Part shown: piece by piece, positions 2,912-55,701 of the stretch
How positions within the stretch are numbered: position 1 is the stretch's first letter
Layout of the letters: every line of letters begins with the position of its first letter
Origin: Opitutales bacterium
GTDB lineage: Bacteria > Verrucomicrobiota > Verrucomicrobiia > Opitutales > T3Sed10-336
Length of the DNA stretch: 64,000 nt
Reading direction: 5' to 3'
Assembly (NCBI GenBank): GCA_022565335.1
Contig: JAIUMY010000002.1
Span: 24,395-88,394, forward strand
Notes under the pieces: generated by a model
Told to the model about the DNA's origin: nothing
What the model saw: the letters and a program-made list of their open reading frames with translations, nothing else
The model's database searches: none
Program-made: the position numbers and the translations under genes

Positions 2912-5029
2912 ATGGCACCGCGAAGAGCAATAGCATTTCCAGCCTCCCCCATACCACCTCATAGGCTTTCCCGCGATGAAACTGAATCTGGAAATAACGG
3001 GGCCGCCGAAAATCTTTCTCCGAACGAAGCCCCCCCCCCAAGTTCTCAAGCCCCCATGCATTTTTCGATGGAGACCCTTCAGTTTGCCATCCATGAGGAT
3101 TGGTCCATCTGTTCGTTTTCCCCCGAAGCCCGCAAACAATTTTATGCGGACTTGAATAGGGACCCCCCTCCTTCACGGTCAAAATGGAATTTGCGCGAGT
3201 TATTAGGACGCACCGAACCCGCTTGGCTTAGCGATTTACCGAAATCAGCAGGGACCCTTCTCCAAGGGGACCGTATTTTCCTACCCTGGGATGTTTCCCG
3301 TAAAGCCCATGGAATGGGATGGTCGGTTTATGCCCTGCCATGTGGCAGAGACCTTTTTAGCATAACCCTTACCCCCACCATGTGTCCAAGCGGCGAAGCC
3401 AAACTGGCGGAAAACTCACTCTCCTTCGATGGCGCGGGCATACAGGAAGTTGTGCGCGAACTCTTCCTGCGGACCCAACAGCAGGAAGCCCGCTTTCAGT
3501 TCTTCGTCCGGCACCTGCCGGGGGCTCATTTCAAGCAGGATACTTCGTATCGTTTTACCCTGATCAACTCGGCGCTGGAAGAATTACTGGGGAACGAACC
3601 GCTGCGGGAATTAAGCGAAGAGGGACAGTGGCTGGATTGGGTACATCCAAACGACCACGAAGAGCTTCTGCGGAATCTTAAACGCTGTAAATCAGCGAAC
3701 CTCCCCTCCTCCTGTCGCTTCCGCTTACTTCTTCCGGACGGTGACCGGGTGTTGCACCTGATGGAACTGCGTATTCCAGTGCGCGGAATTGACGGCTCCT
3801 TGAATGGATACGAAGGGCTTTGGCTGGACCTGACCCGTGAGGAGCTGGCCCAACAGCATTTGCAGCATTCCGCCTGGAAAGACAGTTTGGCACAAATCTC
3901 AGGAAGTTTGTCCCATGATTTCAACAATATGCTGACCGGCTTGGTGTCCCTGTCCGAACTGATGATGATGGATCTCAAGGAAACCGATGAACACTATGAA
4001 ATCGCCAGTCTCATCAAAAGCACCACCAATCAAGCCAAGGAACTCAGCGGTCGGATTATTTCCCTAAACCGGGAAGAGCGCGGACGTCCCCAAATGTGCA
4101 ATCTGGCCGAACTGGTTTCCGCGCAGTTGGATTTGATTCGGATCGTCCTCCCTAAGGACACAACCATCAAACTGGACATCCCGGAAGAGGAGTTCCCGGT
4201 GCGCATGGATATGGTGTCGCTGCGACGGATTCTGGTAAATTTCGCGACCAACGCCCGCGATGTCCTGGAATACAAGGGAACCGTAGAGCTTAAGATTCGT
4301 AAGGTTGATTTTTCCACCTACGATTGCTCCTGCCTGGTCTCAAACCATTGCCAACGCAAGGGGGAGGCAGTTGAGTTTGTATTTGCCGACAACGGTCCTG
4401 GCATTCCCCCTGAAATCATCAGCCGGATCTTCGGGGCCTATTTCTCCACCAAAGATTGCACAACCTCTTCAGGCTCTGGTTTGGGACTCTATTGTTTAAC
4501 TCAATTTGCCCGCGACAATCATTTCGATTACGGGGTCCGCACCCAAATGGGCGAAGGGACCGAAATGGTTTTGATCTTCCCCCTGCTTTGCGAAGATGAT
4601 GAGCCAACCGGGGAAAGCGAGGAAGAATTGAATCTGAACGGCTCCTTTGCCGAACCACCGGTGGCCCTCTACGGCGTCTCAAATTCAGCAACAAATGCGG
4701 TTCTTGCCGGCTTGCGGAGGCAGGGAATCGAAATTTGCGAACTCTCCGATGAAACCGATTTGAAAGATTGGGTGGAAAAGCAAACCGAAGTGCCACGAAC
4801 TCTGCTGATGGCCTTCGCCTATCATGATCACAAGAGAGCTCGCCGCACTTGCGAGTCGCTCGAACTCGACGCTCCCGGACTACAGGCTATTCTTTCCCTG
4901 CAGGGGTTGGATCCTGAACATTTCAGTGATTTGATCGGGGAAAAATTTGATTCCCTAATGATGGCAAACGCCAAACCCTCAGCCAATGTGAAAAAGATTG
5001 TGACCCACCTGAATCCCGCGGCCTCATGA
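2912..5029 (+). CDS. Soluble PAS-domain sensor histidine kinase with receiver-like C-terminal tail
   Basis: H-box SHDFNNMLTGL, N-box NFATNARDV, G1 DNGPGI, G2 GSGLGLY. A PAS-like segment lies upstream (WVHPNDHEELL...RFRLLLPDG). No hydrophobic TM span is seen. The true start may be an internal ATG (3056 or 3068). Confidence 0.8.
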   Translation: MAPRRAIAFPASPIPPHRLSRDETESGNNGAAENLSPNEAPPPSSQAPMHFSMETLQFAIHEDWSICSFSPEARKQFYADLNRDPPPSRSKWNLRELLGRTEPAWLSDLPKSAGTLLQGDRIFLPWDVSRKAHGMGWSVYALPCGRDLFSITLTPTMCPSGEAKLAENSLSFDGAGIQEVVRELFLRTQQQEARFQFFVRHLPGAHFKQDTSYRFTLINSALEELLGNEPLRELSEEGQWLDWVHPNDHEELLRNLKRCKSANLPSSCRFRLLLPDGDRVLHLMELRIPVRGIDGSLNGYEGLWLDLTREELAQQHLQHSAWKDSLAQISGSLSHDFNNMLTGLVSLSELMMMDLKETDEHYEIASLIKSTTNQAKELSGRIISLNREERGRPQMCNLAELVSAQLDLIRIVLPKDTTIKLDIPEEEFPVRMDMVSLRRILVNFATNARDVLEYKGTVELKIRKVDFSTYDCSCLVSNHCQRKGEAVEFVFADNGPGIPPEIISRIFGAYFSTKDCTTSSGSGLGLYCLTQFARDNHFDYGVRTQMGEGTEMVLIFPLLCEDDEPTGESEEELNLNGSFAEPPVALYGVSNSATNAVLAGLRRQGIEICELSDETDLKDWVEKQTEVPRTLLMAFAYHDHKRARRTCESLELDAPGLQAILSLQGLDPEHFSDLIGEKFDSLMMANAKPSANVKKIVTHLNPAAS

Positions 5030-5256
5030 TTAGGATGAGTTAAGCACAAAAACCATGACCCAGCCGATTGAGGAGCGCATCGCCGGATGAAGTAGCCTCC
5101 CCCCAATAAAAGAACTCGGAAAACCTGATCGCCAGCTTCCAAAGGGATAGCTTTCCCTGCAAAGCAAATTTCAGGATGCCATAAAGACTTTAAGGAAAAA
5201 AATGCCTAGCGCCCTCAAGCCGTCGTTAGCCGAAATCTTAGAAATATTTTTTCGAA

Positions 5257-5266
5257 ACCTATAGGT
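5257..5266. promoter_or_regulatory. Perfect 10-bp palindrome ACCTATAGGT about 80 bp upstream of the predicted flgB +1 (candidate activator site)
   Basis: The sequence is self-complementary on direct reading. Its position relative to the sigma-54 promoter at 5315 fits an enhancer-binding-protein site. Confidence 0.3.
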
Positions 5267-5314
5267 CTTTGTTTAACAGAGGTTTATGTCTTTGAAATCC
5301 TGAAAAATCTTAAT

Positions 5315-5330
5315 TGGCACATTGTTTGCT
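5315..5330 (+). promoter_or_regulatory. Sigma-54 (RpoN) -24/-12 promoter of the flgB operon
   Basis: TGGCAC-ATTGT-TTGCT matches the consensus TGGCAC-N5-TTGCW at every fixed position. It lies directly 5' of flgB. Confidence 0.8.
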
Positions 5331-5342
5331 ATACATCTGCGC

Positions 5343-5729
5343 ATGATCGAAAGCATGTTCCAATCCGCAAATCTCCAAGCAACAAAAGCCTTAATGGATG
5401 TTGCGGCGGAGCGCCATAAGGTACTCTCGAGCAACCTGGCCAATGCGGAAACCCCCGGATATCGCCGCATGGAGTTGGATCCTTCCTTTATCAAAACCCT
5501 CCGCACCAGCGTCGCAAACGGTGACATCGGCAGCATCCAAAAGGGAGATATTCGCTTTAGTGAAGACCGCGATCCCAAGCTCCGTGCTGACCACAACGGA
5601 AACAATGTCAGCGTGGATAAGGAATTGATGTTGATCAACGAAAATGCCCTGCGGTACGAGGCGCTGGGACAATTTGCCAGCAGCTCCCTACGCCAATTGA
5701 GTACCGCTATAACCGGAAGACAAACCTAG
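5343..5729 (+). CDS. flgB: Flagellar basal-body rod protein FlgB
   Basis: The N-terminus ends in NLANAETPGYRR (rod-family motif), and the size is about 128 aa. ORF-track start 5322 is rejected because it lies inside the sigma-54 promoter. ATG 5355 is an alternative start. Confidence 0.9.
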   Translation: MIESMFQSANLQATKALMDVAAERHKVLSSNLANAETPGYRRMELDPSFIKTLRTSVANGDIGSIQKGDIRFSEDRDPKLRADHNGNNVSVDKELMLINENALRYEALGQFASSSLRQLSTAITGRQT

Positions 5730-5745
5730 ACAACCCTTACTTCTT

Positions 5746-6147
5746 ATGGACCTCATCCCAGGACTATCTCAAACCGCCAGCGCGTTGGACGCCAACAAGC
5801 TCCGCCTGGAGGTAATCGCCCAGAACATTGCCAATGCCCAAACCACCCGCGGCCCGGATGGAGGCCCTTACCAACGACAGGGCGTTTCCTTCGAGACGGT
5901 TATGCAAGGGGTCAACAAAACCGGCGTATCAGTGGATCGGGTATTTACTGACGAAAGACCGGGTCCCGCAGTCTTTAATCCCACCCACCCCCACGCCAAC
6001 ACTGAAGGGATGGTGCAAATGCCCAATGTTCAGATGGCCGTTGAAATGGTCGACATGATTGCCGCCTCGCGTGCTTACCAGGCAAACTTAAGTGCTTCAC
6101 AAATTTCCCGCGAAATGGCACAGAACGCTCTCCGTATTGGCCAATAA
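5746..6147 (+). CDS. flgC: Flagellar basal-body rod protein FlgC
   Basis: QNIANAQTTRGPDGGPYQRQ near the N-terminus and AASRAYQANL near the C-terminus; 133 aa. Confidence 0.92.
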   Translation: MDLIPGLSQTASALDANKLRLEVIAQNIANAQTTRGPDGGPYQRQGVSFETVMQGVNKTGVSVDRVFTDERPGPAVFNPTHPHANTEGMVQMPNVQMAVEMVDMIAASRAYQANLSASQISREMAQNALRIGQ

Positions 6148-6620: not shown

Positions 6621-8180
6621 ATGAAAACGATATTTACAGATTTTTCGACTTTTTGGAACAGCCTCGAAGCGAACCAAAAGGTTTCCTTTTTTCTCGCTAC
6701 CACCATGCTGGTGATAGGCGTTGCCGCAGTAGCAATCTGGGCACAAAGGCCAGATATGCGCCTCCTCTACGGAGGTCTCGACGAGAAGCAGGCTGCTTCC
6801 ATTATTCAACACCTTGAATCAGAATCGATCCGCTATGAGCTTCGCCATGGTGGCTCCGCCATCTTTGTCCCCCAGAGGGAAGTTTATAAGGCTCGGATGG
6901 ATATCGTGTCCACCGGTACCGTAGGACACGATGCCGTAGGGTTCGAGATTTTCGACCAAAGTTCTTTTGGGGCCAGCGATTTCATCCAGCGGACCAACTT
7001 CATTCGGGCGATACAAGGAGAATTGTCGCGGACCATTTCACAACTAAGTGGCGTTCGTTCGGCTCGGGTAATGGTAGTCATGCCGGAAAACCGTCTGCTG
7101 GTCTCCCAAAACAGCTCCAAAACTACTGCTTCGGTTTTTGTTGAAGTGGCCGGAGGAGGCCTAGACCATTCAGCGGTTCGCTCCATTCAGGCCCTGGTAG
7201 CCAACTCCGTCGAAGGTCTTGAACGCTCAAAGGTCTCTGTCGTCGACAACCATGGCAACGTTCTTTCCACGGATGAAAGCGATGATTCAATGGCGGCCGC
7301 CTCTTCCTCAATTCTCAAATACCGAAAGTCGGTCGAATCTTATTTCTCCAATAAAGTGGAAACCATGCTGGAAAGAGTTCTGGGCCCGGAGAATGTTACC
7401 GTTCGAGTCCACGCGGAGATCGATTCGGAGGAATTCTCCAGAATCGAAGAAGTTTTTGGTGACGGAGATGGGGCCCTCCTCTCCTCAGTTACCGAGGAGC
7501 AGTCCTCCTCCTCTACCAAACCCTCCACCGGAGGTCCGGTCGGAGCCGGCGATGCCACTGCAGAAAGCGCGGGAACAGGAGGAACATCCGATGAGGAACG
7601 CCGGATGCGGGATCAGCAATTTGCGGTTGACCGCATGGTCACCAACACCTCCCGAAGGGCGGGTTCTATTAGCCGTTTGACGGCCTCCGTTTTTATCGCC
7701 GCCAAAACGGAAACCGCCGAAGGGGAAACAGAACCACAAATCGTACCCCGCTCCCAGGAGGAAATAGATAATTTGCGTCAGATTGTGGCCAAATCTCTGG
7801 GGATTGACCTGGACGATAGCGAAACCGGTCAGATCGAGGTTCAGGAGATGCCCTTTGCGATAGGAAGCCAAACCCTCCCCCCCTTTCCCGGGGAGAGACC
7901 CGAGGGATTCGACCTTTCAACGCTGATGGAATACAGCAGTGAAATCATCGGTTCCGTCGTCGCTTTAATCCTTTTTATCACCTTTCTGATCATTTATCGG
8001 AAGCTAAAAGACCAACCTTCACCTTTCGACCAAATGGAACAAGCCGCCGCATCCTTCCGGCCGGGGGGGCATGGCAGCTCCGATATCACGCCGGATCTTT
8101 TAAATAATTTGATCAGTCAGCGCCCGGAAAATACCGCGGCATCGATCAAGAATTGGTTGCGGCAAAAGGATGAAAGCTAG
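6621..8180 (+). CDS. fliF: Flagellar MS-ring protein FliF
   Basis: 519 aa. N-terminal TM, then YELRHGGSAIFVPQREVYKARMD and FIRAIQGELSRTI, plus a C-terminal TM. Synteny supports the call. Confidence 0.92.
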   Translation: MKTIFTDFSTFWNSLEANQKVSFFLATTMLVIGVAAVAIWAQRPDMRLLYGGLDEKQAASIIQHLESESIRYELRHGGSAIFVPQREVYKARMDIVSTGTVGHDAVGFEIFDQSSFGASDFIQRTNFIRAIQGELSRTISQLSGVRSARVMVVMPENRLLVSQNSSKTTASVFVEVAGGGLDHSAVRSIQALVANSVEGLERSKVSVVDNHGNVLSTDESDDSMAAASSSILKYRKSVESYFSNKVETMLERVLGPENVTVRVHAEIDSEEFSRIEEVFGDGDGALLSSVTEEQSSSSTKPSTGGPVGAGDATAESAGTGGTSDEERRMRDQQFAVDRMVTNTSRRAGSISRLTASVFIAAKTETAEGETEPQIVPRSQEEIDNLRQIVAKSLGIDLDDSETGQIEVQEMPFAIGSQTLPPFPGERPEGFDLSTLMEYSSEIIGSVVALILFITFLIIYRKLKDQPSPFDQMEQAAASFRPGGHGSSDITPDLLNNLISQRPENTAASIKNWLRQKDES

Positions 8181-14212: not shown

Positions 14213-15523
14213 ATGGCACTCATAGGATCATTAACCAGCGGCGTTAGCGCCATGCAGGGCTTCGTCAGAGGGATGGAGGTCATTGGCAACAATATCGCCA
14301 ACTCAAAAACCACAGCCTTTAAACGGCAGCGCTTGGGATTCAGCGATAGTTTTTCGAATACCCTTCGCGATGCCTCCCCAGGGGGCGCCAATGTCTCCAG
14401 CCAAGCACCTATCCAGATCGGTTCAGGGACAAACCTGAGCTCCACCACCAAAATCTTTGATCAGGGCTCGGTTGGAGCTACCGGAGTCTCCTCCGATCTG
14501 GCGATTGTCGGGGAAGGTTTCTTCCGCGTTATCGACCCCGCCAATGATAACCAGTTTCTAACCCGCAACGGCTCCTTTCGGGTCGATAGTGAAGGGTTTC
14601 TCGCAGACCAAACCGGCAAGCGCGTGTTAGGCCTGACGGGGGGCTCTTCAAACCAAGCCCCGGACACCATCGCCCCGATCCGCATCGATCTGGCAGAAAG
14701 CGTAAAAACCAATCCCGACGGAGATCCGGTGGATGAACAAAACCGGGTTATTCTTGATGATGGCACCCGCCTTGAAGAGAATGCAACCGGCGATTTATTC
14801 CGCGTTAACGAGGAAGGCGACCTGCTTGACTCCACGGCTGCGGCGGCTGCGGACAGTTTTGTCTTGCAAGACATTGGCGGCACGCCCGCACGGGCAGTCT
14901 TCGACACCACGGACGAAGTCCGCTACTTGCAGGACGACCAGGGCAATTTCATTGATGGCAATGGGGCCGTAAGTGCAACCCCGGTGCCATGGGACCCCGG
15001 TTCTCAACCCCAAGCCGTTATTGGTGATACCGAAGCTTCGGCCGCTCTTTGGGAGGCAACCAATGCCTTTCAACCAAATATTGCCGAAGCAGACCCCAGT
15101 GACCCAAACCAGTTCCAACTGGCAATTCAGTCCTGGGCGGTAGGTCCTACCGGAGACTTGACCCTCTCCCTGAATGATGGTTCGTCCTACACCCGGGCCA
15201 AGGTGCTCACCCAGTCAGTGAGTGATCCTGACGCCCTTACCTCTGACGGCAGCGGATTATTCACCGGAATCCAGAACGCTGGTCCAAGGGGCATGGAGAC
15301 CTGGGATATTGGCAACACCATTTCCTCCGCAAACCTGGAACAACACTCTCCCGGCAGCCAGGGTTTGGGTTTCATCCAAGGAGGATCGCTCGAAGGCTCG
15401 AACACCGACCTGACCTTTGAGTTCTCGGAAATGATTACGACGCAGCGTGCCTTCCAAGCCGGTTCAAGAGTAATCACGGTATCCGATGAGATGTTGCAGG
15501 AAATTATTAACCTGAAACGATAA
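14213..15523 (+). CDS. flgE: Flagellar hook protein FlgE
   Basis: N-terminus GMEVIGNNIANSKTTAFKRQ and C-terminus MITTQRAFQAGSRVITVSDEMLQEIINLKR; 436 aa. Confidence 0.93.
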   Translation: MALIGSLTSGVSAMQGFVRGMEVIGNNIANSKTTAFKRQRLGFSDSFSNTLRDASPGGANVSSQAPIQIGSGTNLSSTTKIFDQGSVGATGVSSDLAIVGEGFFRVIDPANDNQFLTRNGSFRVDSEGFLADQTGKRVLGLTGGSSNQAPDTIAPIRIDLAESVKTNPDGDPVDEQNRVILDDGTRLEENATGDLFRVNEEGDLLDSTAAAAADSFVLQDIGGTPARAVFDTTDEVRYLQDDQGNFIDGNGAVSATPVPWDPGSQPQAVIGDTEASAALWEATNAFQPNIAEADPSDPNQFQLAIQSWAVGPTGDLTLSLNDGSSYTRAKVLTQSVSDPDALTSDGSGLFTGIQNAGPRGMETWDIGNTISSANLEQHSPGSQGLGFIQGGSLEGSNTDLTFEFSEMITTQRAFQAGSRVITVSDEMLQEIINLKR

Positions 15524-18824: not shown

Positions 18825-19592
18825 ATGGTGTTTCCCGACTCAGTCACAATACTTTACGCCACCGGGGTGTTTTTCCGTGCCGGAACATTCCTCTTTCTTC
18901 TTCCCCTCCTGGGTAGACCGGTTCCGATACAGATCCGTATAGCCATGGCCGTATTCCTAAGCTACAGCGCCGTCCTGCTAATCCCCCCGCCAGAAGGGCT
19001 GGCCATGTTCACCCATTGGTCCAGCTTGCTGGCCTTTGCCTTGGTAGAGAGTTTTTTAGGCTTTTGTATGGCCTTGGGCGTCCTGCTCCTCTTTCACCTT
19101 GTGCAAACCGCTGGAGAGCTCATTTCTTCACAAATGGGATTGATGCAAAGCAATATCCTAAACCCGATGAGCGGCTCACAGGAATCCGTGTTGGGAACCG
19201 GATTAATGATGCTGACCCTGGCCATGATCTTCATCCTGGATGTGCACCACGAAATTCTTTACGGATTTTTACAGAGCTTGCATATTGCCCCGGTGGGAAC
19301 AGTTCCCATGGATGGCCGAAATGTAGAGTTTGTCCTTTATGAAACCGGCAAAATATTCCTCATCTCCATTCAAATGGCCGCCCCGATCATTGCCGTCAAC
19401 TATATCGTCACACTTTCCTTTGCCTTTTTAGGAAAAATTATTCCTACGATGAATGTCTTAATTCTTAGCTTTAGCGTGAGGCTAATGCTAGGGTTCCTTG
19501 TTTTAACGCTTGTCTTCTATATGCTGGCACAATTGTTGCTGCGCTTCATTTCGTCAACCCCTGAGCGAATGTTGCAATTTCTGCCTTTTTAA
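18825..19592 (+). CDS. fliR: Flagellar export gate protein FliR
   Basis: 255-aa polytopic protein between fliQ and flhB. Confidence 0.88.
   Translation: MVFPDSVTILYATGVFFRAGTFLFLLPLLGRPVPIQIRIAMAVFLSYSAVLLIPPPEGLAMFTHWSSLLAFALVESFLGFCMALGVLLLFHLVQTAGELISSQMGLMQSNILNPMSGSQESVLGTGLMMLTLAMIFILDVHHEILYGFLQSLHIAPVGTVPMDGRNVEFVLYETGKIFLISIQMAAPIIAVNYIVTLSFAFLGKIIPTMNVLILSFSVRLMLGFLVLTLVFYMLAQLLLRFISSTPERMLQFLPF
19525..19540 (+). promoter_or_regulatory. Sigma-54 -24/-12 promoter inside the 3' end of fliR, upstream of flhB
   Basis: TGGCAC-AATTG-TTGCT is a perfect match to TGGCAC-N5-TTGCW. The predicted +1 (about 19551) lies 72 nt before the flhB ATG. Confidence 0.65.
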
Positions 19593-19622
19593 AACAACTC
19601 CCTAGCCAACCACCTCAGCTTT

Positions 19623-20723
19623 ATGCCCGAAGAACAGGATCGCGAGTCAAAGACCGAGCAACCAACCGAGAAACGCTTAAAAAAAGCTCGAGAGGAGGGG
19701 AATTTCCCGAAAGCACAAGAGATCCAGGTGGTCTTTGGGCTAATTGCTTCGTTTATTGCGATTCTCTTTTTAGCGGGCACCATAGGAGAAAGGTTTTACT
19801 TGTTTGGCAAGGGCATCTTCGCCAATTTGAGTGAATTCGAGGTGACCACCTCAACGGTGGGCGACTCTGCCAGAGAAAGCGCCAGCAGTTTCCTTTTATT
19901 GCTAATGCCTCTATTGAGTCTTGCGGTCCTCTCCAGCATTCTCGCCGGAGGCCTCCAAAGCGGCTTTCGCCTGGCCCCCAAAGCACTTAAACCAAAAGGG
20001 CAAAAACTGAACCCCATCAAGAATGCCAAACAGAAATTCGGGAAACAGGCCTATGTCAAGTTTGGTGTGGACCTGCTCAAACTGCTCGCAGTGGCCGGGG
20101 TCATCGCCTTTGCGATACGCCGACTAACCTTGCACCCAATTTTCCACACCCCCATCGAAGCCTTTCAAATCCTTGTCTTCATAAGGGAATCAACGCTCTA
20201 CATGCTTTCCCTATTGATCGTGGGAGTTGGCCTCGTGGCACTGGTAAATTACCTCTACCAACGTCATAAGGTGATGGGAGACCTGCGAATGACCAGGCAG
20301 GAAGTCAAGGATGAGCACAAACAGGCCGAAGGCGACCAACAGGTAAAAAGTGCCCGAAAACAGATGGCGCTTAAATTGATGGAAAGGCAGTCTTTCAAGG
20401 CGATCCCGCAAGCCGATGTAGTGGTAACCAATCCCACCCACTTTGCCGTAGCCCTCCGCTACGATCGCAGCCGCAACAACTCCCCAATGATCATCGCCAA
20501 GGGCAAAAATCTGGTTGCTCAGCGCATTAAAGAAATTGCCCGGAAGCATGGTGTGCCAATGGTGGAAAACCGACCCGCGGCACAGGCTCTTTATAAAATC
20601 GGGCAGCCGGGCAAGGAAATCCCCGCTCAACTTTTCCAAGTCGTGGCCGAGATTCTGGCCTACGTTTATCGCCATAACCGTAGTTTTTTTCATCGCCGTA
20701 AAGTTTCTCTTCCGAGAACCTAA
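19623..20723 (+). CDS. flhB: Flagellar export switch protein FlhB
   Basis: N-terminus KTEQPTEKRLKKAREEGNFPKAQE; autocleavage motif NPTHFAVAL; 366 aa. Confidence 0.93.
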   Translation: MPEEQDRESKTEQPTEKRLKKAREEGNFPKAQEIQVVFGLIASFIAILFLAGTIGERFYLFGKGIFANLSEFEVTTSTVGDSARESASSFLLLLMPLLSLAVLSSILAGGLQSGFRLAPKALKPKGQKLNPIKNAKQKFGKQAYVKFGVDLLKLLAVAGVIAFAIRRLTLHPIFHTPIEAFQILVFIRESTLYMLSLLIVGVGLVALVNYLYQRHKVMGDLRMTRQEVKDEHKQAEGDQQVKSARKQMALKLMERQSFKAIPQADVVVTNPTHFAVALRYDRSRNNSPMIIAKGKNLVAQRIKEIARKHGVPMVENRPAAQALYKIGQPGKEIPAQLFQVVAEILAYVYRHNRSFFHRRKVSLPRT

Positions 20724-20726
20724 CTT

Positions 20727-22931
20727 ATGGAAAGTAAAACCGAGAACAAGGGTTGGTTCCTGGGCCTGGTAAAAAATGGCGACTACATCCTCGCCGCAGC
20801 CATGTTTGCGGTGGTTATTGTCCTGATTTTACCAGTCCCAAAGGCAATTCTTGACTCCTTGCTCGTCATCAGTGTTGGGACTTCGATTCTGATCCTGCTG
20901 GTTATCATCTATGTCCGGGAGCCCATTCAGCTGACCGTATTTCCGTCTATATTGCTGATAATGACGCTCTACCGACTGGCCCTGAATGTCGCATCGACTC
21001 GTTTAATTCTACTGGATGCCGATGCCGGGCGGGTGATTGAGTCTTTTGGCCAATTTGTTGTCGGCGGCAATTATGTCGTAGGGGCCGTTGTTTTTCTTAT
21101 TCTGGTGTTAGTCAATTTCCTCGTGATCACCAAGGGTGCCGGGCGGATTGCCGAGGTCGCGGCACGCTTCACCCTGGACGCGATGCCAGGCAAGCAAATG
21201 GCTATCGATGCGGAGCTCAATGCGGGCGCGATTGACGAAAAAGAAGCGCAAACAAGACGGGCAAAAGTCCAACAGGAAGCTGATTTTTACGGCAAGATGG
21301 ACGGTGCCAGCAAGTTTGTCCGGGGGGATGCGGTGGCCGGCATTCTGATCACCCTGATCAACATCATTGGCGGCTTGAGCATTGGCATGATGCAGCGGGA
21401 CATGAACCTGGATGAGAGTCTCCGGGTCTATACCCTGCTTTCCATTGGTGATGGACTGGTTTCCCAAATCCCCGCCTTGGTTCTCTCCTTTGCCGCTGGC
21501 CTCCTCATCACCCGGACCTCCGGACGGCAGAATCTGGGGAGCACAATGGCCCGGCAACTCGGGTTCTACCCAAGGGCGCTGGGCATTCTCGGCGGAGTCA
21601 TGTGCTTCATGGCGATACTTCCGGGCATGCCTAAAATACCTTTCCTTTCTTTTGCCGCCATCGCTTTCATTCTTTCGATTTTGATGAAAAAGCGTAAGCT
21701 CGATGCCACCCGTTTTGCCGAAGTTCTGGATGAGGTCGAGGAGAAAGCTGATTCCACCCAGGGAAGTTCGGCAATATCACCTGATCGCCAAGCCTCTTCG
21801 GATAACAGTGGTCAGACGGAACATCCGGGGGAGTCTGGAGACTTGGAAAAAATGTTGGATATTGATACCCTTTCGGTTGAGTTAGGCTACTCCCTCCTGC
21901 GCTTGGCAGATGAGAAGAAAGGCGGCGATTTGGTTGAACGGGTAACGGGCTTGCGCAAAACCTTTGCCAAAGAGGTCGGACTACTTTTGCCCACAGTATC
22001 GCTGCGAGATAATTTCGAACTGGAAGCCAATGATTATTGCTTCCTCCTTCGGGGCAAACCAGTCGCCCGGGGAAGAATCCTACCCAACCGCTCCCTGGCC
22101 ATGAACGTTTCCGGCAGCAAAGCCAAAATTCCCGGAGAAAAAACGAAAGAGCCGGTTTTCGGGCTGGATGCTATATGGGTCGACGAGAACGGTCGCAAAA
22201 TCGCCGAAATGAATGGCTTCACCGTTGTCGATGCGGCCTCGGTCCTATGTACCCATCTATCCGAAACTTTTCGCAGGTACGCGCATGAGATACTGGACCG
22301 GCAAACCGTTCAGCGAATGGTGGATCATACCCGGGCAAAACATCCCGCCCTCATTGAGGAACTCTTCCCGGAAGTCATCTCGACTGGTCTGTTACAAGGT
22401 GTTTTAGCAAACCTTCTACGGGAAAATGTCTCAATCCGCAATTTGAACCTTATTCTGGAAAGCATGGGAGATATGGCGCTTCACTCCAAAAATGTGAACG
22501 ACCTGTCCGAACATGCCCGACGCCGTCTCGCACCCTATATTATCAACCAATATGAGTCCGAGCCCGGAAAGATAAAGGCCATCACCCTCGACCCTCGACT
22601 CGAACAGTATTTGTTGGCCCGAGTACAGCGTACGCAATTCGAAGTAAGCATTAGCCTGGATCCGGGGACCGCGCATGATGTCCTGGGACAATTAACCCGG
22701 TTAATGACGGAAATGAATAATGAAGGGCAAACTCCTTTGATTGTCGTCATGCAAGAGCTTCGCCTGGGATTCAAACGCTTCTTTGAATCGACATTGTCAC
22801 GTTTAGTGGTTATTTCCTATCAAGAGATCCCCCCCAACACTGAAATTGAAAATTATGGCATTGTTCAGGCCCCCGCTTCCATGGAACAGGAAAGGGCCAA
22901 AAACAAGGCAGAAGTTGGAGCTAACGCATGA
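20727..22931 (+). CDS. flhA: Flagellar export gate protein FlhA
   Basis: 734 aa. Conserved FHIPEP-type N-terminal membrane domain (ITKGAGRIAEVAARFTLDAMPGKQMAIDAE) plus a cytoplasmic C-terminal domain. Confidence 0.94.
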   Translation: MESKTENKGWFLGLVKNGDYILAAAMFAVVIVLILPVPKAILDSLLVISVGTSILILLVIIYVREPIQLTVFPSILLIMTLYRLALNVASTRLILLDADAGRVIESFGQFVVGGNYVVGAVVFLILVLVNFLVITKGAGRIAEVAARFTLDAMPGKQMAIDAELNAGAIDEKEAQTRRAKVQQEADFYGKMDGASKFVRGDAVAGILITLINIIGGLSIGMMQRDMNLDESLRVYTLLSIGDGLVSQIPALVLSFAAGLLITRTSGRQNLGSTMARQLGFYPRALGILGGVMCFMAILPGMPKIPFLSFAAIAFILSILMKKRKLDATRFAEVLDEVEEKADSTQGSSAISPDRQASSDNSGQTEHPGESGDLEKMLDIDTLSVELGYSLLRLADEKKGGDLVERVTGLRKTFAKEVGLLLPTVSLRDNFELEANDYCFLLRGKPVARGRILPNRSLAMNVSGSKAKIPGEKTKEPVFGLDAIWVDENGRKIAEMNGFTVVDAASVLCTHLSETFRRYAHEILDRQTVQRMVDHTRAKHPALIEELFPEVISTGLLQGVLANLLRENVSIRNLNLILESMGDMALHSKNVNDLSEHARRRLAPYIINQYESEPGKIKAITLDPRLEQYLLARVQRTQFEVSISLDPGTAHDVLGQLTRLMTEMNNEGQTPLIVVMQELRLGFKRFFESTLSRLVVISYQEIPPNTEIENYGIVQAPASMEQERAKNKAEVGANA

Positions 22932-23947
22932 ACCACGCCGATGACAGTACAATTCGATTTATAGCCAAGTCCGCGCAGGAAGCGGCGGCGATAGTCCGTG
23001 AACGCCTGGGCCCGGAAGGCCGGGTAATTTCTGTCGAACAAATCATGGGCAGTGGACTAAAACGCTTCGTCTCGGCTCCCCGCCTACAGATTGTTGCCAA
23101 GAAAGTCCCGCCGCCGGAGTTTTCATCAAAGACGAAAACCAGCGCCTCCGAACAAGCCGGGCCCGAAGCCCCCGCCCCCTTACCCAACCCCACGACAACT
23201 CGAGCAGGTCATCGGCGCACCCTTTCCTGCCGCTCGCTGCTGCTAAAAGCGGGGTTTTCCTCCAGGCTGATGGCCCGCCTCGAGGGCGCCGAACGCTGGC
23301 GTGAAATTGGTGAGATGGAAGCGGGGGAAGGCCTACCACAGGCCATTGCCTGGCTCCGGCAATATCGCGCTAAGCCAGAGCCTTTGGACGAGAATTCAAC
23401 AATAGCCTTTATCGGCTTCGCCGGGGCCGGCAAGACATCGGCATTACTTAAGTATTTGGCCCGCGAGCTTTTCTTATACAATCGCACCCCAAAAGTTTTG
23501 CAAATGGAGGTTGATAAGCCCCACATGGATAGCGGTCTTTCCCTTTATTGTGATGTTCTGGGGGTACCTTGCTTCGAAGACCCGAGCCAAATTAAAGGAA
23601 CGGGAGCATTGCTAATTGATGTGCCCGGTGTCCCACCTTCAGCAAAAAAGGAGCAGGCCAATTTAGCCGCCGCCCTCAAAGCGATCGGGACAGAGCATCG
23701 CGTCCTGGTGATGAATGCCGCCTACGAAAACCCGGTGTTGGAAAGACACTCCGAACTCGGTCTTGCCTTGGGAGCTACGCACCGGGTATACACCCATCTT
23801 GATGAGCTTGACAATGTCAGCAAGCTCTGGGTCGGCGTGCTCGACCCGAAGTGCCCCACCCTCTTTTTCTCCAATGGTCAAAATATGGTTGGCAATTTGG
23901 TCGAGGACAGCTTCGGCTTTCTAATAGAAAGGACCTTCCCAAGATGA
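22928..23947 (+). CDS. flhF: Flagellar SRP-type GTPase FlhF
   Basis: G1 FIGFAGAGKTS, G3 LLIDVPG, G4-like THLDE. Position after flhA and ATGA overlap with the flhA stop support the call. Confidence 0.85.
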   Translation: MNHADDSTIRFIAKSAQEAAAIVRERLGPEGRVISVEQIMGSGLKRFVSAPRLQIVAKKVPPPEFSSKTKTSASEQAGPEAPAPLPNPTTTRAGHRRTLSCRSLLLKAGFSSRLMARLEGAERWREIGEMEAGEGLPQAIAWLRQYRAKPEPLDENSTIAFIGFAGAGKTSALLKYLARELFLYNRTPKVLQMEVDKPHMDSGLSLYCDVLGVPCFEDPSQIKGTGALLIDVPGVPPSAKKEQANLAAALKAIGTEHRVLVMNAAYENPVLERHSELGLALGATHRVYTHLDELDNVSKLWVGVLDPKCPTLFFSNGQNMVGNLVEDSFGFLIERTFPR

Positions 23948-24189
23948 ACCGTTACTTTTTTATCGGAGGATTCCTCGGGTTTACACTGTTGTTCGCGATC
24001 TCCATTTACTCGGGAGCAAGCATCCATGTGGTCTTAAGAAACGCGATGGTCGGATGCCTCCTTTTCGCATTTTTTTTCCATTATTATATCAACCGTGTGG
24101 CGCAAATTTATCTGGAATCCCGCTTGCGCCTAATGGAAGAAGCACGGCAGCAAGAACGCGAAAGACAAAAGGAGGAACCAAAGTCATGA
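23944..24189 (+). CDS. 81-aa two-TM protein with charged C-terminal helix, uncharacterised (occupies the usual flhG slot)
   Basis: MNRYFFIGGFLGFTLLFAISIY...MVGCLLFAFFFHYYI...ESRLRLMEEARQQERERQKEEPKS. ATGA overlaps with the flhF stop and with the fliA start. The ORF-track upstream extension overlaps flhF. Confidence 0.6.
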   Translation: MNRYFFIGGFLGFTLLFAISIYSGASIHVVLRNAMVGCLLFAFFFHYYINRVAQIYLESRLRLMEEARQQERERQKEEPKS

Positions 24190-24977
24190 GCGGCGAAGCA
24201 ACAGCCAAACAGATCAGCGATGCCTATTCCAATGCCAAGCGTTCAGAACCAAAAGTGCAGGAGCGCATGAAGGCTTATGCCCTTAAATATTTACCGATCG
24301 TTAAAAGCGAAGTGCTGCGATTCAAAATGCGAGTTCCCAAACATATCGAATTCGAGGAATTACACGGGGTTGCCATATGCGGATTGATGCGCGCCTTCGA
24401 GCGCTACCAGGAAGGAGACGAACGCTTTGGGATCTATGTCCGGCAACGGGTTCGGGGCGCCATCCTCGACGAACTTCGCAGCCTCGACACCATGTCGCGG
24501 ACGATCCGCAAAAAAGCGCGGCGCTACGACGAAGCAATCCAAAAGGTCGAGCAGCGGGAGGGACGAATCGCCACGGAAGACGAGATTCGCAATGAACTGG
24601 GCCTCGGCCCCAAAGACTTCGATAACCTTCTGGACCAACTTCGGCCGGTCACTTTTTTCTCCTTGGACGATGTCAATAGCGAATCGGATTCCGCAGCCCT
24701 GGCCGAGCGAGTCGAGGATCAAAAAACCCCCTCTGCAGTGGAGTCTTTGGAATCACAGGAATTGTTTACCCTCATTCGAGAACGACTCGAACTCCTGCCG
24801 GAAAAACAAAAAAAGATTTTACATATGTATTATTTCAAAGACTTTAGACTTGCGGAAATCGCACAAGTCTTTAACATTTCGGAAAGTCGAGCTTGTCAAT
24901 TACATGTACAAGGGGTACGATTTTTAAAAGCTGCGCTCAGCAAACAAATGCGATCTGAAAACCCTACTCCTAGATAG
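24186..24977 (+). CDS. fliA: Flagellar sigma factor FliA (sigma-28 family)
   Basis: Sigma-70 regions 2-4 (YLPIVKSEVLRF..., RLAEIAQVFNISESRACQLHVQGVRFLK). Start chosen at the ATGA overlap (M45 of the ORF-track frame). Confidence 0.88.
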   Translation: MSGEATAKQISDAYSNAKRSEPKVQERMKAYALKYLPIVKSEVLRFKMRVPKHIEFEELHGVAICGLMRAFERYQEGDERFGIYVRQRVRGAILDELRSLDTMSRTIRKKARRYDEAIQKVEQREGRIATEDEIRNELGLGPKDFDNLLDQLRPVTFFSLDDVNSESDSAALAERVEDQKTPSAVESLESQELFTLIRERLELLPEKQKKILHMYYFKDFRLAEIAQVFNISESRACQLHVQGVRFLKAALSKQMRSENPTPR

Positions 24978-24979
24978 TT

Positions 24980-25846
24980 ATGATATTACTGATTGGATAT
25001 ATTATCGTAATTGGCTCCGTTGTGCTCGGTTTACATATTGGTGGCTCGAACATAATGGTCCTGGCTCACTTAAATGAGTTTGTTGTGGTTTTGGGAATTT
25101 GTTTTGGGGTCATGGTGATTGCCAGTCCATTCGCTGTACTGAAGGCCATTTTTGTTAAAACAATCGATGCTTTTAAGGGCGGTTCAATCAAAAAAGATGC
25201 CCATATGGAAGCACTGCAAATGCTTTATCAATTCTTCATGCTTGCGAGGAAAGATGGTTTACTTGCGTTGGAAGAGCATATTTCCGACATCAAACAAAGC
25301 TCCATTGCGAGTCAATACCCCACCTTCGTAAATAATGAGAACGCCGTAAACTTTCTGGTGGACTCACTCCGGCCCATTGTTGACGGCCGGATAAAACCTG
25401 AGGATATGCAGGAGTTGGTTGATGCCGAGATTCGCTCCCTTAGCGGAGAAAATGCCGAACCAATCCATGTCATGAGATTGGTCGGAGATTCATTTCCCGG
25501 CATCGGAATTTGCGCGGCGGTCCTCGGAATCATTCTAACCATGGGCAATATTGCCGAAGGCGCCGAAACCGTCGGCTACAAGGTCGCGGCCGCACTAACC
25601 GGAACCTTCCTGGGAGTGTACGGTGCCTATGGTTTCGTAAATCCACTGACCATAGTCATGGAGACCAACAATGGTTCCGAGGAACGCTACTATAAACTCC
25701 TCGGGCAGTCGATTGTTAGCTTTACCAACGGCATGGCACCGCTGATGGCCGTGGAAATCGGACGAAGAACCCTTCTACCCGGAGAACGCCCCGGCTCAGA
25801 CGAAATGGAAGAAACTCTGAAAAAAATAGGAAAGGGGGATAGTTAA
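24980..25846 (+). CDS. motA: Flagellar stator protein MotA
   Basis: 288 aa, MotA/TolQ/ExbB channel family (GDSFPGIGICAAVLGIILTMG..., TGTFLGVYGAYGFVNPL). Directly precedes motB. Confidence 0.9.
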   Translation: MILLIGYIIVIGSVVLGLHIGGSNIMVLAHLNEFVVVLGICFGVMVIASPFAVLKAIFVKTIDAFKGGSIKKDAHMEALQMLYQFFMLARKDGLLALEEHISDIKQSSIASQYPTFVNNENAVNFLVDSLRPIVDGRIKPEDMQELVDAEIRSLSGENAEPIHVMRLVGDSFPGIGICAAVLGIILTMGNIAEGAETVGYKVAAALTGTFLGVYGAYGFVNPLTIVMETNNGSEERYYKLLGQSIVSFTNGMAPLMAVEIGRRTLLPGERPGSDEMEETLKKIGKGDS

Positions 25847-25848
25847 TC

Positions 25849-26661
25849 ATGGCAGCTGGTGGTGGTGGCGCATGGAAGGTCGCGGCAGCCGACTTTTTTA
25901 CTGCTATGATGGCACTCTTCATGGTTTTGTGGATTTTAGGCTCCGAACAAGAGATGCTAGAACAATTACAGGAGTATTTCCGCAATCCTCCCAGCCCCTT
26001 CACCGAGCGGTCCGGCAAGTTCCCAGTGGAAATGGGGGATTTTTCCGGACGCAGCGCTACGGATGCGGAAGAGGCTTTTTTTGACCGGATTGACCCTATC
26101 ATTCTGAAAGGTATCGTTAATGAATTTAATCGAATTCTGCAAATGGAGGCAACACAGGATGAGGTTCCCCCAGTCGATATCACCATTACCTCCGATGGTC
26201 TTCGGGTCTCCCTTTTTGATCGCAAGGACACTGCCCTGTTTCAAGCCAACCATACCGAGCTAACCCCTTGGGCAAATTTCGTGACCCAAAATCTGGCTTG
26301 GTTGATATCCCGCTATCCTTTTGAAATAATTGTTGAAAGCTACACCTCGGAAACCCCTGCCGAAGAAAGTGACCTTATGCAGCCCGGCGATACCGCTTGG
26401 GAACTTTCCACCCGACGCGGCAACATTTTCCGCCAACGGTTGCAATTCTACGCCAATGAACAGTTGAATTTTCGTTCGGTCGTTGGCTACGGACCCGATT
26501 CTTCTTTTTCCGAACAAGAAATTGCCCGAGGAAAAAGCAACCAGCGGATCGTTTTGTCTCTTTCTCTCGCCAATCCCCAACAACTACCAGACTTTTCCGA
26601 GGTAGGCGATGACTTGCGGGGGCCCGAGATTACCCCGCCAGAGGAGCTAAACGAACAATGA
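25849..26661 (+). CDS. motB: Flagellar stator protein MotB
   Basis: N-terminus AWKVAAADFFTAMMALFMVLW carries the conserved Asp in the TM segment. C-terminal OmpA-like region (AWELSTRRGNIFRQ). Confidence 0.88.
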   Translation: MAAGGGGAWKVAAADFFTAMMALFMVLWILGSEQEMLEQLQEYFRNPPSPFTERSGKFPVEMGDFSGRSATDAEEAFFDRIDPIILKGIVNEFNRILQMEATQDEVPPVDITITSDGLRVSLFDRKDTALFQANHTELTPWANFVTQNLAWLISRYPFEIIVESYTSETPAEESDLMQPGDTAWELSTRRGNIFRQRLQFYANEQLNFRSVVGYGPDSSFSEQEIARGKSNQRIVLSLSLANPQQLPDFSEVGDDLRGPEITPPEELNEQ

Positions 26662-26909
26662 GCCAATCGACCGGTAAAAATTTCCCGAAGGAACAGAGTA
26701 ACCTTGCCAAACCCTCTGAGTTCCAACCATACGCCACCGCGCTAAAGATTCAGCAAGGTAAAAATTCAGCCAAATCCGGGGGCCCTGAAGAGGACTCAGG
26801 AAAGAAAAAACCTAAGGTTCAAGTCGTTGATGAAGATGGTATTGTGAAAAAAATACGGGTCACATGTTCGTGCGGAGAACTCATAGAAATCGATTGTTCA
26901 TATGATTAA
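26658..26909 (+). CDS. 83-aa hydrophilic protein with C-terminal CxC-x8-C motif, uncharacterised
   Basis: ATGA overlap with the motB stop. Disordered K/E/S/G-rich N-terminal part, then VVDEDGIVKKIRVTCSCGELIEIDCSYD. No family is recognised from memory. Confidence 0.5.
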   Translation: MSQSTGKNFPKEQSNLAKPSEFQPYATALKIQQGKNSAKSGGPEEDSGKKKPKVQVVDEDGIVKKIRVTCSCGELIEIDCSYD

Positions 26910-53019: not shown

Positions 53020-55701
53020 TCAAAGCTCCTCCCGTTGCTCCCGCAGCAATTCTACTCCGGGCAAATTCTGTTCCGTGAAAAGTCGGTGAACCTCCAATGC
53101 CCTCTCGGTCTCCTCCGAGGACTCCAATAAGCGACTCAGGGCCAATAACGCTCTGGCTACCCAAAATCTTCCGGTGGTTCCGTAAACCACCGGTTCCTCC
53201 CCTTGAAGGGTTTGCGCCAATTGGTAATAAATCGTCCTCGCCCGCCCCTTTTCCCCAAATCTTTCGAGCGCCTGCCCCAACTTGTACGAGGCTTCACTGC
53301 GCACATCAGGCGTCAATTCCGGCAGATCCAACAACCGTTCCAGAATACCCAAGGCCGCCACCGCATGACGGTCTCCGACTTCCTCGGCTTGGGCCAGATG
53401 ACTATCGGCAATGGCCAGACGCACCTGCGAAATTTCGGGATGATCGGAATGACTCGACAAAACGGTTTCGTACACTTGCCGGGCGGCGCTGAAACGGTTC
53501 ATCTGGCGCAAAATGTCTCCTTGCCGAACCCTCGCATAGAACCCCATCGGATGCCCCGGAAAATCGCGCACCAGACTTTCCAGCCGAGCAATCGCCTTCT
53601 CCTGAAAATTCGTATCATGACCACTGCGCAAATGATACAGGGCAGCCTCATAATACGCAATGACCAGAAAATCCGCCGCCCTCTCCCGGCGCTCCAGTGC
53701 TTCCTCATCCTCATCCTCCTCGCGCCTTACCGATTGAATGAGATTCTCCAAAACATTGGCCGCCGTAACCGTTTGCCCCTGTTCCGCTAAATAACGGGCC
53801 TGGGACAATACTGCATATACCGCCGCATCGGTTTCCGGAAAATTTTGGTACACCTCCTCGAAAATTTCCACCCCTTCCTCAATATCCCCCAGACGAAGAA
53901 GAACATTGGCTTGCAGGAGCAAGGTGTGGCTGACCAACCGTTGCCACCACCCGGCTTCGGTTTCGTTAAGCGCGGTCAAATCTTCCTTCAATTCAATCGC
54001 CATTGCCAAAGCCTCCTCCCAGCGCCCCACCTCATAACTCATTTGGGCACTAAGCCAACGAAGGCGAAGACGAAGCGTCTGGACCTCCCGAACATCAGCC
54101 GGAAATTCATTTCCCAGAAGCCGCTCGATACGCGCCATTCCTTCCCTCCGACGGTTTTCCCGCTGCAGGGTTCGCGCTAAATTCCACTCCGCTTTCCAGA
54201 GCAAATCCCCGGAAGAACCGTCCTCGCCCAACTCATCCCACCACTGGTCCATCGCCCTTTTGGCACTCTCGGTCTCCCCCCGCCGGATTTCCGCCAGGAC
54301 CCGCTGGTGAAAAGTCCGTCCCCGATGTATTCTGGAACCATCTCCCACCAAGGCCTCACCATACGCTTCAGCGGCATTGGAATAATCTCCCGCACGAAAA
54401 TAACTATCCCCCAGAAGTAAGCTCCACTCGGCCCGACGGGCAGGATTCTCCGTGCGCTCTCGCAAATTGGCCAGACGATTGGACGCCGTTCGAAACTGGC
54501 GCTGGTCCCACGCCAAAAGGGCTTGGGTTTGTAGAACCAGAGGAACCACCTGGGACGCCGGAAATTCTTCCAAAATACGTTGGGCATCCTCTCCGGCCCC
54601 GTCATAGTCTCCCAGGGCAAGGCGCAACTGGGACCGGTGAAAGAGAATTTCATCCAGGAGCAAATGAGGAGGTTCCAATTCAACCAAACCATCCAATAGC
54701 TCGCCCAAAGCCTCTTCCCCTCCTTCTTGACGGAATTCCTCCCGCAACAACATTGCCAAGGCGGACCGGAGGTAAGAACGCCGCTCCCCTATTTCCAGAA
54801 GCCGCCGTAAGGATTCGCGCCCGCGGGAACTTCCCTGACCGGCCACCAAACCTTCGAGCAAAAGATACTGCTCCCGCAATTCCCGCGCCTCTTCGGGTAA
54901 ACGCGGGTAGTGGGTGCGCAGAAGATTTAACGCCTCTTCCCGCCGGTCAAGCCAATGCAACAAAGCCGCTTGCTGCAAAATAAAACGAAACCCAATGACC
55001 CGCCCGGAAAACTCTTCCACCTGGGCTGCCAATTCACTTAGCAAATCCTCCGAAGGGGCATCCCCCAACAATTGCAAACGAAACTGAGCTAACCGGGTGC
55101 GGGCGATCAACGCGGGCCCCACCTCCATCTCCAGTATCCTCTCGTACCAGTTGCGGGCATCCTCCACGCGACCCCTTCGCTCCATATGAAGCCCCCTGAG
55201 AAAAAAAAAGATCCCCCGTTCCGTTTCCGGCAACAAATCGGCCGGAAACCCCGCAATCAAACGGTCCAGCTCCCGGCGATCTTCTTTTTCAAAGGTAATG
55301 ATGGCTCTCCGTAAATCCCAGCGGGGTCCCTCAAAATCGGGGTTTGCCTGCAATACTTCCTCTGCTTCCCGCAAGCGCCCCACCGCCAAATAGGATGCCG
55401 TGAGGTTGAGTAAGGCCTCCTCCCTCCGATGGTCCTCAGACGGCAAAGCGGCCAAGGCTTCCTGAAAAAAGTAAATCGCCAGCGACGGGAAGCCTTCCTT
55501 TTGGGCCTGCTCTCCCAACGAAAGAGCCCGCAGAAAACCGGATTCCCGCTCAATCTCCAACCATCCCTCATCCTCGACCAAAGGCACCCGCGGCATCGCC
55601 TTCGCCGGACTTTCGGCGGACAAAGGCGTAAGAAGCGGCAAACATGCCGCCAAAACGCCAAGGACCAAACGTCGGCGAAAGGCTTTTACTGAGAAATTCA
55701 C
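53020..55701 (-). CDS. Large secreted TPR-repeat protein
   Basis: 893 aa. Signal peptide (LVLGVLAACLPLLTPLSAES) and many A/L/Y/E-rich 34-residue-type repeats. First gene of the exbBD operon. Confidence 0.75.
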   Translation of the reverse strand: MNFSVKAFRRRLVLGVLAACLPLLTPLSAESPAKAMPRVPLVEDEGWLEIERESGFLRALSLGEQAQKEGFPSLAIYFFQEALAALPSEDHRREEALLNLTASYLAVGRLREAEEVLQANPDFEGPRWDLRRAIITFEKEDRRELDRLIAGFPADLLPETERGIFFFLRGLHMERRGRVEDARNWYERILEMEVGPALIARTRLAQFRLQLLGDAPSEDLLSELAAQVEEFSGRVIGFRFILQQAALLHWLDRREEALNLLRTHYPRLPEEARELREQYLLLEGLVAGQGSSRGRESLRRLLEIGERRSYLRSALAMLLREEFRQEGGEEALGELLDGLVELEPPHLLLDEILFHRSQLRLALGDYDGAGEDAQRILEEFPASQVVPLVLQTQALLAWDQRQFRTASNRLANLRERTENPARRAEWSLLLGDSYFRAGDYSNAAEAYGEALVGDGSRIHRGRTFHQRVLAEIRRGETESAKRAMDQWWDELGEDGSSGDLLWKAEWNLARTLQRENRRREGMARIERLLGNEFPADVREVQTLRLRLRWLSAQMSYEVGRWEEALAMAIELKEDLTALNETEAGWWQRLVSHTLLLQANVLLRLGDIEEGVEIFEEVYQNFPETDAAVYAVLSQARYLAEQGQTVTAANVLENLIQSVRREEDEDEEALERRERAADFLVIAYYEAALYHLRSGHDTNFQEKAIARLESLVRDFPGHPMGFYARVRQGDILRQMNRFSAARQVYETVLSSHSDHPEISQVRLAIADSHLAQAEEVGDRHAVAALGILERLLDLPELTPDVRSEASYKLGQALERFGEKGRARTIYYQLAQTLQGEEPVVYGTTGRFWVARALLALSRLLESSEETERALEVHRLFTEQNLPGVELLREQREEL

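Follow-up and report, generated by a model that had tools for sequence, protein, structure and literature searches.

The window considered here is a stretch of 64,000 nucleotides (nt) from an Opitutales bacterium of the Verrucomicrobiota (assembly GCA_022565335.1, contig JAIUMY010000002.1, positions 24,395 to 88,394 of the forward strand), which carries a flagellar gene cluster on one strand, extending from flgB (~5344) to flgL (34771). Within this cluster, the 3' end of fliR overlaps a perfect -24/-12 motif of sigma-54 (RpoN), an alternative sigma factor, at 19525-19539, and this motif is probably a functional internal promoter, from which the following block of genes—flhB to motB, including the sigma-28 gene fliA—would be transcribed. 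Four lines of evidence carry this reading, namely the geometry of the motif, its conservation at the DNA level among relatives, the tight packing of the genes downstream and the presence of a sigma-54 promoter at the same gene junction in a sister family, the Opitutaceae. To our knowledge, there are no experimental studies on flagellar gene regulation in Verrucomicrobiota.

The motif consists of the elements TGGCAC and TTGC, separated by the 5-nt spacer AATTG and directly followed by a T at 19540, and the flanking Y and W positions are likewise matched (cTGGCACaattgTTGCt). Its GG and GC dinucleotides are exactly 10 bp apart, as is characteristic of sigma-54 promoters. It is oriented in the sense direction of fliR and overlaps the codons for L-A-Q-L-L-L in a frame reading ATG CTG GCA CAA TTG TTG CTG CGC TTC (MLAQLLLRF; preceding codon TAT). 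The motif ends 84 nt before the ATG of flhB (19623), thus covering distances of 84-98 nt from it; the sense orientation, the plausible distance and the packed genes downstream are all as would be expected of a sigma-54 promoter. Both the motif and a start near 19551, at a distance of 72 nt from the ATG of flhB, had been proposed in an initial annotation of the window; direct reading confirmed the coordinates of the former exactly, and those of the predicted start hold when C19539 is taken as position -12.

Chance expectation and conservation of the motif

Perfect matches to TGGCAC-N5-TTGC occur three times in the window, counting both strands, versus 0.11 expected from dinucleotide-preserving shuffles. 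A stricter null was obtained by 1000 synonymous-codon shuffles within each of 61 open reading frames (ORFs), by which the encoded proteins and the codon usage were kept. These shuffles yielded a mean of 0.93 perfect matches, with a probability of 0.007 for three or more. Most of this mean derives from the match just upstream of flgB at 5315, which is largely intergenic, overlapping a TTG-start ORF at 5322, and is mostly left intact by the procedure. At the 19525 site itself, the motif was recreated in 0.4% of the 1000 shuffles. The third perfect match, antisense within flgE, is probably a chance match, considering that the segment around it is rich in indels and that the related loci L081 and L083 (FlgE 67-69% identical) lack it; it is usable as an internal negative control.

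Matches with one mismatch are also in excess in the window as a whole (10 observed versus 3.9 expected; shuffle maximum 8), and include one at 33964 (+) in flgL and one at 54744-54758 (-) in the gene of a tetratricopeptide repeat (TPR) protein. Another one, TGGCAAAGGTTTTGC, is antisense in flhA (21955-21969, -) and recurs in L081 (~8143-8157, -) and L091 (~5917-5931, -), because the conserved peptide K-T-F-A is encoded by common codons. As judged from this example, the recurrence of a sigma-54-like match alone is insufficient to prove a site.

A graded series of fliR sequences was assembled from metagenomic and assembly look-ups, and in all its loci flhB comes directly after fliR. Searches with FlhB and FliR assigned the window to the order Opitutales of the Verrucomicrobiota; in the nearest species-representative genome, FlhB identity is only 47%. 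FliR identity to the window amounts to 87% in L084/L085, 79% in L086/L087, 77% in L088, 73% in L081/L082 and in L083, 70% in L089 and 68% in L090, and continues downwards with 59% in L091, 56% in L092 and L097, 53% in L093, 50% in L094 and 47% in L095. Eight lineages with FliR 68-100% identical were counted (window, L084, L086, L088, L081, L083, L089 and L090); L096 was dropped as an independent lineage, given its 99% nucleotide identity to L083.

The codon pattern xTG GCA CAx xTx xTG CTx is kept in 8/8 lineages at or above 68% FliR identity. TGGCAC is invariant in all of them, down to the third-position A of the GCA (Ala) codon, while the -12 box reads TTGC (three lineages), ATGC (four) or CTGC (one), with TGC and the next T invariant throughout. 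Within the motif boxes, only the -15 position therefore varies, which is the least constrained position in sigma-54 promoter compilations. All degenerate positions that fall on TGGCAC or TGC are invariant, and all those in the spacer and the flanks vary, namely in codon 1 at its first base (C/T/G), in the Gln/His codon at its wobble (A/G/T), in codon 4 at both its first and its third base, and in codon 6 at its wobble (G/A). Even in L089, in which Leu is replaced by Val and Gln by His, TGGCAC is kept (GTG GCA CAT). These features agree with those of intragenic sigma-54 promoters of the Escherichia coli type, which are positioned within an ORF, in sense orientation, and with conserved wobble positions.

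The background against which this conservation is to be read is close to saturation: pairwise identity at fliR wobble positions is 33-63% among the eight lineages, and in codon alignments of seven lineages covering eight genes from fliM through flhA (6741 nt), only 5.7% of the third positions are invariant. Among the conserved columns of four-fold degenerate residues (A, G, P, T, V), an invariant codon was found in 4/354, distributed as 2/90 for Ala, 0/90 for Gly, 1/56 for Pro, 0/35 for Thr and 1/83 for Val. The GCA of the motif is one of the two invariant Ala codons, although it is the rarest Ala codon, making up 14% of the Ala codons in those columns. When the nine positions TGGCAC and TGC were used as a mask and required to be jointly invariant, only two loci in the 6741 nt complied, the 19525 site and a run of four Met codons in fliP, for which no synonyms exist. 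In addition, TGGCACA is the fourth-longest invariant run in these alignments, the longer ones being made of Met or two-fold codons. At 59% FliR identity and below, the Ala codon changes to GCT or to the Val codon GTT, and the motif is down to 2-3 mismatches; hence, FliR does not require GCA, or even Ala, at this position. These comparisons indicate that the motif is under selection at the DNA level beyond the coding need of FliR; a comparison with synonymous-site expectation in fliR orthologues had been suggested in the initial annotation.

The fliR/flhB junction in Opitutaceae

The 22 closest genome loci of Opitutia, including those of the Opitutaceae (Opitutus, Rariglobus, Didemnitutus and others), were compared at the same junction. 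In 17/22 loci, a sigma-54 motif with 0-2 mismatches precedes the start of the FlhB match by 29-51 nt, where the match in the Opitutaceae loci begins at about residue 3-4 of FlhB; predicted flhB leaders are only ~10-20 nt long. Most of the 17 loci share with the window the gene order fliQ-fliR, flhB-flhA-flhF-fliA-motA-motB, according to tblastn matches and a Pfam check of L021.

In these Opitutaceae loci, fliR and flhB are separated by a spacer of 170-600 nt, versus 30 nt in the window clade. In 14 loci, the spacer contains the palindrome GGCAA-N3-TTGCC, whose position relative to the start of the -24 element is between -109 and -131, mostly -119 (for example ~5842-5856 in L005), and a variant of it, CTGCAGAWTTTGCCG, at -87/-88 in three more (L007, L014 and L017), with an AT-rich block between palindrome and sigma-54 motif; the module is seen in L002-L021. 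Enhancers of sigma-54 promoters are usually located ~80-150 bp upstream. The flagellar enhancer-binding protein of the Opitutaceae probably binds at this palindrome, and the sequence layout of the junction is that of a textbook enhancer-dependent sigma-54 promoter, located at the junction that harbours the window motif. Predicted sigma-54 starts between fliR and flhB are therefore recurrent in the class. Junction, downstream gene order and sigma-54 motif are common to both groups, whereas the Opitutaceae promoter is intergenic, has its palindrome near -119 and gives a predicted leader that is very short, and the promoter of the window clade lies inside fliR, next to a 30-nt spacer, and the palindrome was not detected.

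In the regions upstream of the two sense-strand promoters of the window (19150-19560 and 5000-5345), only a weak palindrome at 19208-19235 was found among inverted repeats. An element with 12/14 matches that is shared by both upstream regions (5239 versus 19432) is AT-rich and was attributed to chance, as its synonymous sites vary in relatives. Two further candidates for enhancer sites, GGAAAA-A-TTTTCC, which some relatives have in fliR, and CGGCAAAATATTCC at 19346, were discarded because both encode the conserved peptide GKIFL and their wobble positions vary.

Downstream genes and the predicted transcription unit

The features concerned are compiled in Table 1. Pfam and NCBIfam matches, together with the translations, bear out the gene order flhB-flhA-flhF-X-fliA-motAB given in the initial annotation.

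Table 1. Promoter elements, genes and further sigma-54 motifs in the window (coordinates count from its first nucleotide)
Feature	Position	Strand	Remarks
-24 element TGGCAC	19525-19530	+	read directly; GG at -25/-24
-12 element TTGCT	19536-19540	+	read directly; GC at -13/-12
Predicted transcription start	19551 (+/- 2 nt)	+	from standard sigma-54 geometry, C19539 = -12
Predicted 72-nt leader	19551-19622	+	last 42 nt of fliR plus 30-nt intergenic spacer
fliR (promoter host)	18825-19592	+	Pfam Bac_export_1, E = 3e-42; protein 100% identical to FliR of an Opitutales metagenome-assembled genome
flhB (first gene of predicted unit)	19623-20723	+	Pfam Bac_export_2, E = 1e-105
flhA	20727-22931	+	Pfam FHIPEP, E = 8e-253; begins 3 nt past flhB stop
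flhF-like GTPase gene, divergent	22928-23947	+	NCBIfam FlhF 39 bits (cut-off 174); 4-nt overlap with flhA
X (81-aa ORF)	23944-24189	+	two hydrophobic segments, charged tail; ATGA overlaps with flhF and fliA
fliA (sigma-28, 263 aa)	24186-24977	+	NCBIfam FliA_WhiG 195.6 bits (cut-off 189.6)
motA	24980-25846	+	Pfam MotA_N/MotA_ExbB; 2-nt gap before
motB	25849-26661	+	Pfam MotB_plug; 2-nt gap before
83-aa ORF after motB	26658-26909	+	
Perfect sigma-54 motif just upstream of flgB	5315-5329	+	intergenic
Perfect sigma-54 motif antisense in flgE	14975-14989	-	no gene downstream on that strand

From flhB to motB, all junctions are overlaps or gaps of at most 3 nt, which leaves no room for intergenic promoters; on the basis of this packing, fliA would belong to the flhB unit and be co-transcribed from the sigma-54 promoter at 19525. 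The flhF-like gene is extremely divergent, its SRP54 GTPase domain match being marginal (E = 0.003), and no FlhG/MinD-like gene is present between it and fliA. For fliA, the first in-frame ATG at 24054 would give a protein of 307 amino acids; however, FliA_WhiG matches only from residue 78 of this longer ORF, and the ATGA overlaps of X on both sides place the true start at 24186.

Binding of sigma-54, the start site, activator dependence and the dependence of fliA on sigma-54 are predictions from sequence, which can be put together as follows. The sigma-54 RNA polymerase holoenzyme would bind the 15-bp site at 19525-19539 on the sense strand of the fliR 3' end, an ATP-dependent enhancer-binding protein would remodel the closed complex, and transcription would begin near 19551. 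The resulting transcript would comprise the 72-nt leader and flhB, flhA, flhF, X, fliA, motA and motB, and possibly extend into flgF and beyond. This promoter would add to read-through from the flgB promoter instead of replacing it, giving a nested operon. Motif conservation, the Opitutaceae junction promoter and gene packing thus all speak for the separate transcription start of the flhB block that had originally been suggested. The sigma-54 to sigma-28 cascade postulated along with it stands in part: gene packing would put fliA into the flhB unit, but a search for sigma-28 promoters (TAAA-N14-17-CCGATA) returned 0 matches in the window, with only the enterobacterial-type consensus tried and the flagellin gene situated outside the window. 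Hence, only the first half of the cascade is visible.

At the other end of the cluster, the flgB promoter has its predicted start at ~5341, i.e., 3 nt before the ATG at 5344 and 12 nt before that at 5353, so that the flgB mRNA would have hardly any leader, or none. At 5194-5206 there is a weak palindrome with two mismatches, GGaAAAAAaTGCC, corresponding to -121 of the flgB promoter, which is about the distance of the enhancer-like palindrome from the promoter in Opitutaceae. A 705-amino-acid PAS histidine kinase, which among NCBIfam families is most similar to CckA-type kinases, is encoded at 2912-5029 (+), and 285 nt separate the end of its gene from the flgB promoter; this kinase may be a sensor for the flagellar activator.

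Competing explanations and known systems

Several observations weigh against promoter function at 19525. The predicted leader of 72 nt compares with promoter-ATG distances of ~15-35 nt at flgB and at the Opitutaceae flhB. Furthermore, distant lineages without the motif likewise retain the G of codon 1, the G of codon 5 and the C of codon 6 of the conserved pattern. As these are three of the four constrained degenerate positions, it is largely the GCA codon that carries the evidence from single sites, and the joint mask test is the stronger statistic. In L001, L010, L015, L016, L022, L091-L095 and L097, fliR abuts flhB but the motif is missing, and the promoter is therefore dispensable in these lineages. 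No convincing terminator was found after fliR, and for this reason read-through from upstream is likely as well; in addition, further internal promoters may serve fliA. The Opitutaceae palindrome, searched as CGGCAA-N3-TTGCCG with up to three mismatches over the window, gave nothing convincing near 19525, the best matches being distant from it in fliK (12635) and motB (26418). Neither the 280 nt upstream of the motif nor the 5' end of flhB contains a conserved synonymous stretch, and the 64-kb window encodes neither rpoN nor a Sigma54_activat protein. Some sigma-54 activators can do without a DNA-binding domain or operate from downstream sites.

How a promoter could have come to lie in fliR is a matter on which we offer a tentative and rather doubtful suggestion. 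An ancestral sigma-54 module of the Opitutia may have been absorbed into fliR of this marine Opitutales clade as the spacer collapsed from 170-600 to 30 nt, with the enhancer being lost on the way, and the promoter would then be fired without a nearby site, either by an activator devoid of a DNA-binding domain or by looping from a remote site. FlgR of Campylobacter and Helicobacter and the chlamydial CtcC are activators without a DNA-binding domain. If this suggestion is true, it would provide a documented case in which an enhancer-dependent promoter has turned enhancer-less and protein-coding at once under genome compaction.

Among the explanations that dispense with promoter activity, the one to be taken most seriously, albeit improbable, is that the site binds the sigma-54 holoenzyme and is conserved for this purpose, but is silent or has another role, e.g., in keeping a closed complex poised, as a reservoir or as a roadblock. 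It would fit the failure to detect an enhancer site near the motif, and flhB could be supplied by read-through, as no terminator follows fliR; moreover, the majority of sigma-54 sites in E. coli lie within genes, and at most sites the bound state is an inactive one (PMC4591121). What argues for an active promoter instead is the sense orientation of the site, its position 84 nt before a start codon and its placement at the very junction at which the Opitutaceae have a complete enhancer-plus-promoter module. Against a roadblock role, intragenic sites in E. coli are reported to leave the expression of the overlapping genes unaffected (PMC4591121).

Less probable again is a mere by-product of coding, according to which the conserved peptide L-A-Q-x-L/M-L happens to spell the motif in common codons that are shared through common ancestry. 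The peptide is indeed conserved, lineages devoid of the motif still retain xTG, xTG and CTx, the antisense flhA match (21955-21969) recurs through coding conservation alone, and flgE provides a perfect chance match. However, this account leaves the invariance of the rarest Ala codon amid near-saturated wobble positions unaccounted for (2/90 Ala and 4/354 four-fold columns), joint invariance of the mask is seen elsewhere only in a run of Met codons, the motif reappears at the site in only 0.4% of codon shuffles, and the Opitutaceae have an intergenic sigma-54 promoter at the same junction. The remaining explanation, by which the conserved nucleotides have some other role in DNA or RNA, e.g., in forming a small mRNA hairpin or as the target of another DNA-binding protein, is the least credible of all. 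RNAalifold does pair UGGCA with UGCUG in a 5-bp hairpin in 8/8 sequences, but with a consensus energy of only -2.6 kcal/mol and no covarying pair; the single-sequence fold gives z = 0.00, i.e., a predicted leader without significant structure, there is no Rfam match, and the potential for such a hairpin is built into the sigma-54 consensus itself.

With an internal promoter at 19525, the ~29-kb single-strand flagellar supercluster is predicted to be a nested operon that sigma-54 enters at two or more points and in which the sigma-28 gene fliA is placed behind sigma-54, as in Vibrio and Pseudomonas putida. The fliR site would be a clean example of a promoter overprinted on the codons of a membrane protein, with a rare codon frozen among saturated neighbours as its signature. 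The contrast with the Opitutaceae, where the promoter at the same junction is intergenic and accompanied by a palindrome at a fixed distance, offers a natural test case for the dependence on enhancers. The result leaves current concepts of sigma-54 and of flagellar hierarchies as they are.

The closest known counterpart is PflhF of P. putida, a sigma-54/FleQ promoter inside flhA which drives flhF-fleN-fliA (PMC6424431), and further sigma-54 promoters inside preceding genes contribute to the nested flagellar operons of this organism (PMC6424431; bioRxiv 10.1101/2021.08.29.457346). Common to both systems are a -24/-12 motif inside the preceding export gene, extra transcription of distal genes including fliA—predicted in the case of the window—and the nested operon that results. 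Distinctive of PflhF are the host gene flhA, flhF as the first gene served and an imperfect motif, TGGAACAgattTTGCT, located 284-298 nt from the start codon, whereas the window, which belongs to the Verrucomicrobiota, has fliR as the host, flhB as the first gene and a perfect motif at 84-98 nt from the ATG. Further, the activator of PflhF is known to be FleQ and its activity has been measured, while the window promoter is predicted from sequence comparison.

In Vibrio cholerae, RpoN directly controls the class II promoters of flhA and flhFG-fliA (PMC3439928), so that, as predicted for the window, sigma-54 is set above a unit of export gate, flhF and fliA, with sigma-28 downstream of sigma-54. 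Unlike in the window, where flhB would be the first gene served, flhB and fliLMNOPQR of V. cholerae are without promoters recognised by RpoN (PMC3439928). Conserved intragenic sigma-54 promoters have been described in E. coli and Salmonella, E. coli having many conserved intragenic sites, some of them proven promoters (Bonocora et al. 2015, PMC4591121). The sites resemble that in fliR in being sense-oriented and conserved and in driving mRNAs of downstream genes, as is predicted for the window; they differ in having unusually long 5' untranslated regions and in resting on evidence from chromatin immunoprecipitation sequencing (ChIP-seq), versus a short predicted leader of 72 nt and comparative evidence in the window. 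Judged by these analogies, the arrangement proposed for the window is of a type already known from Pseudomonas and Vibrio.

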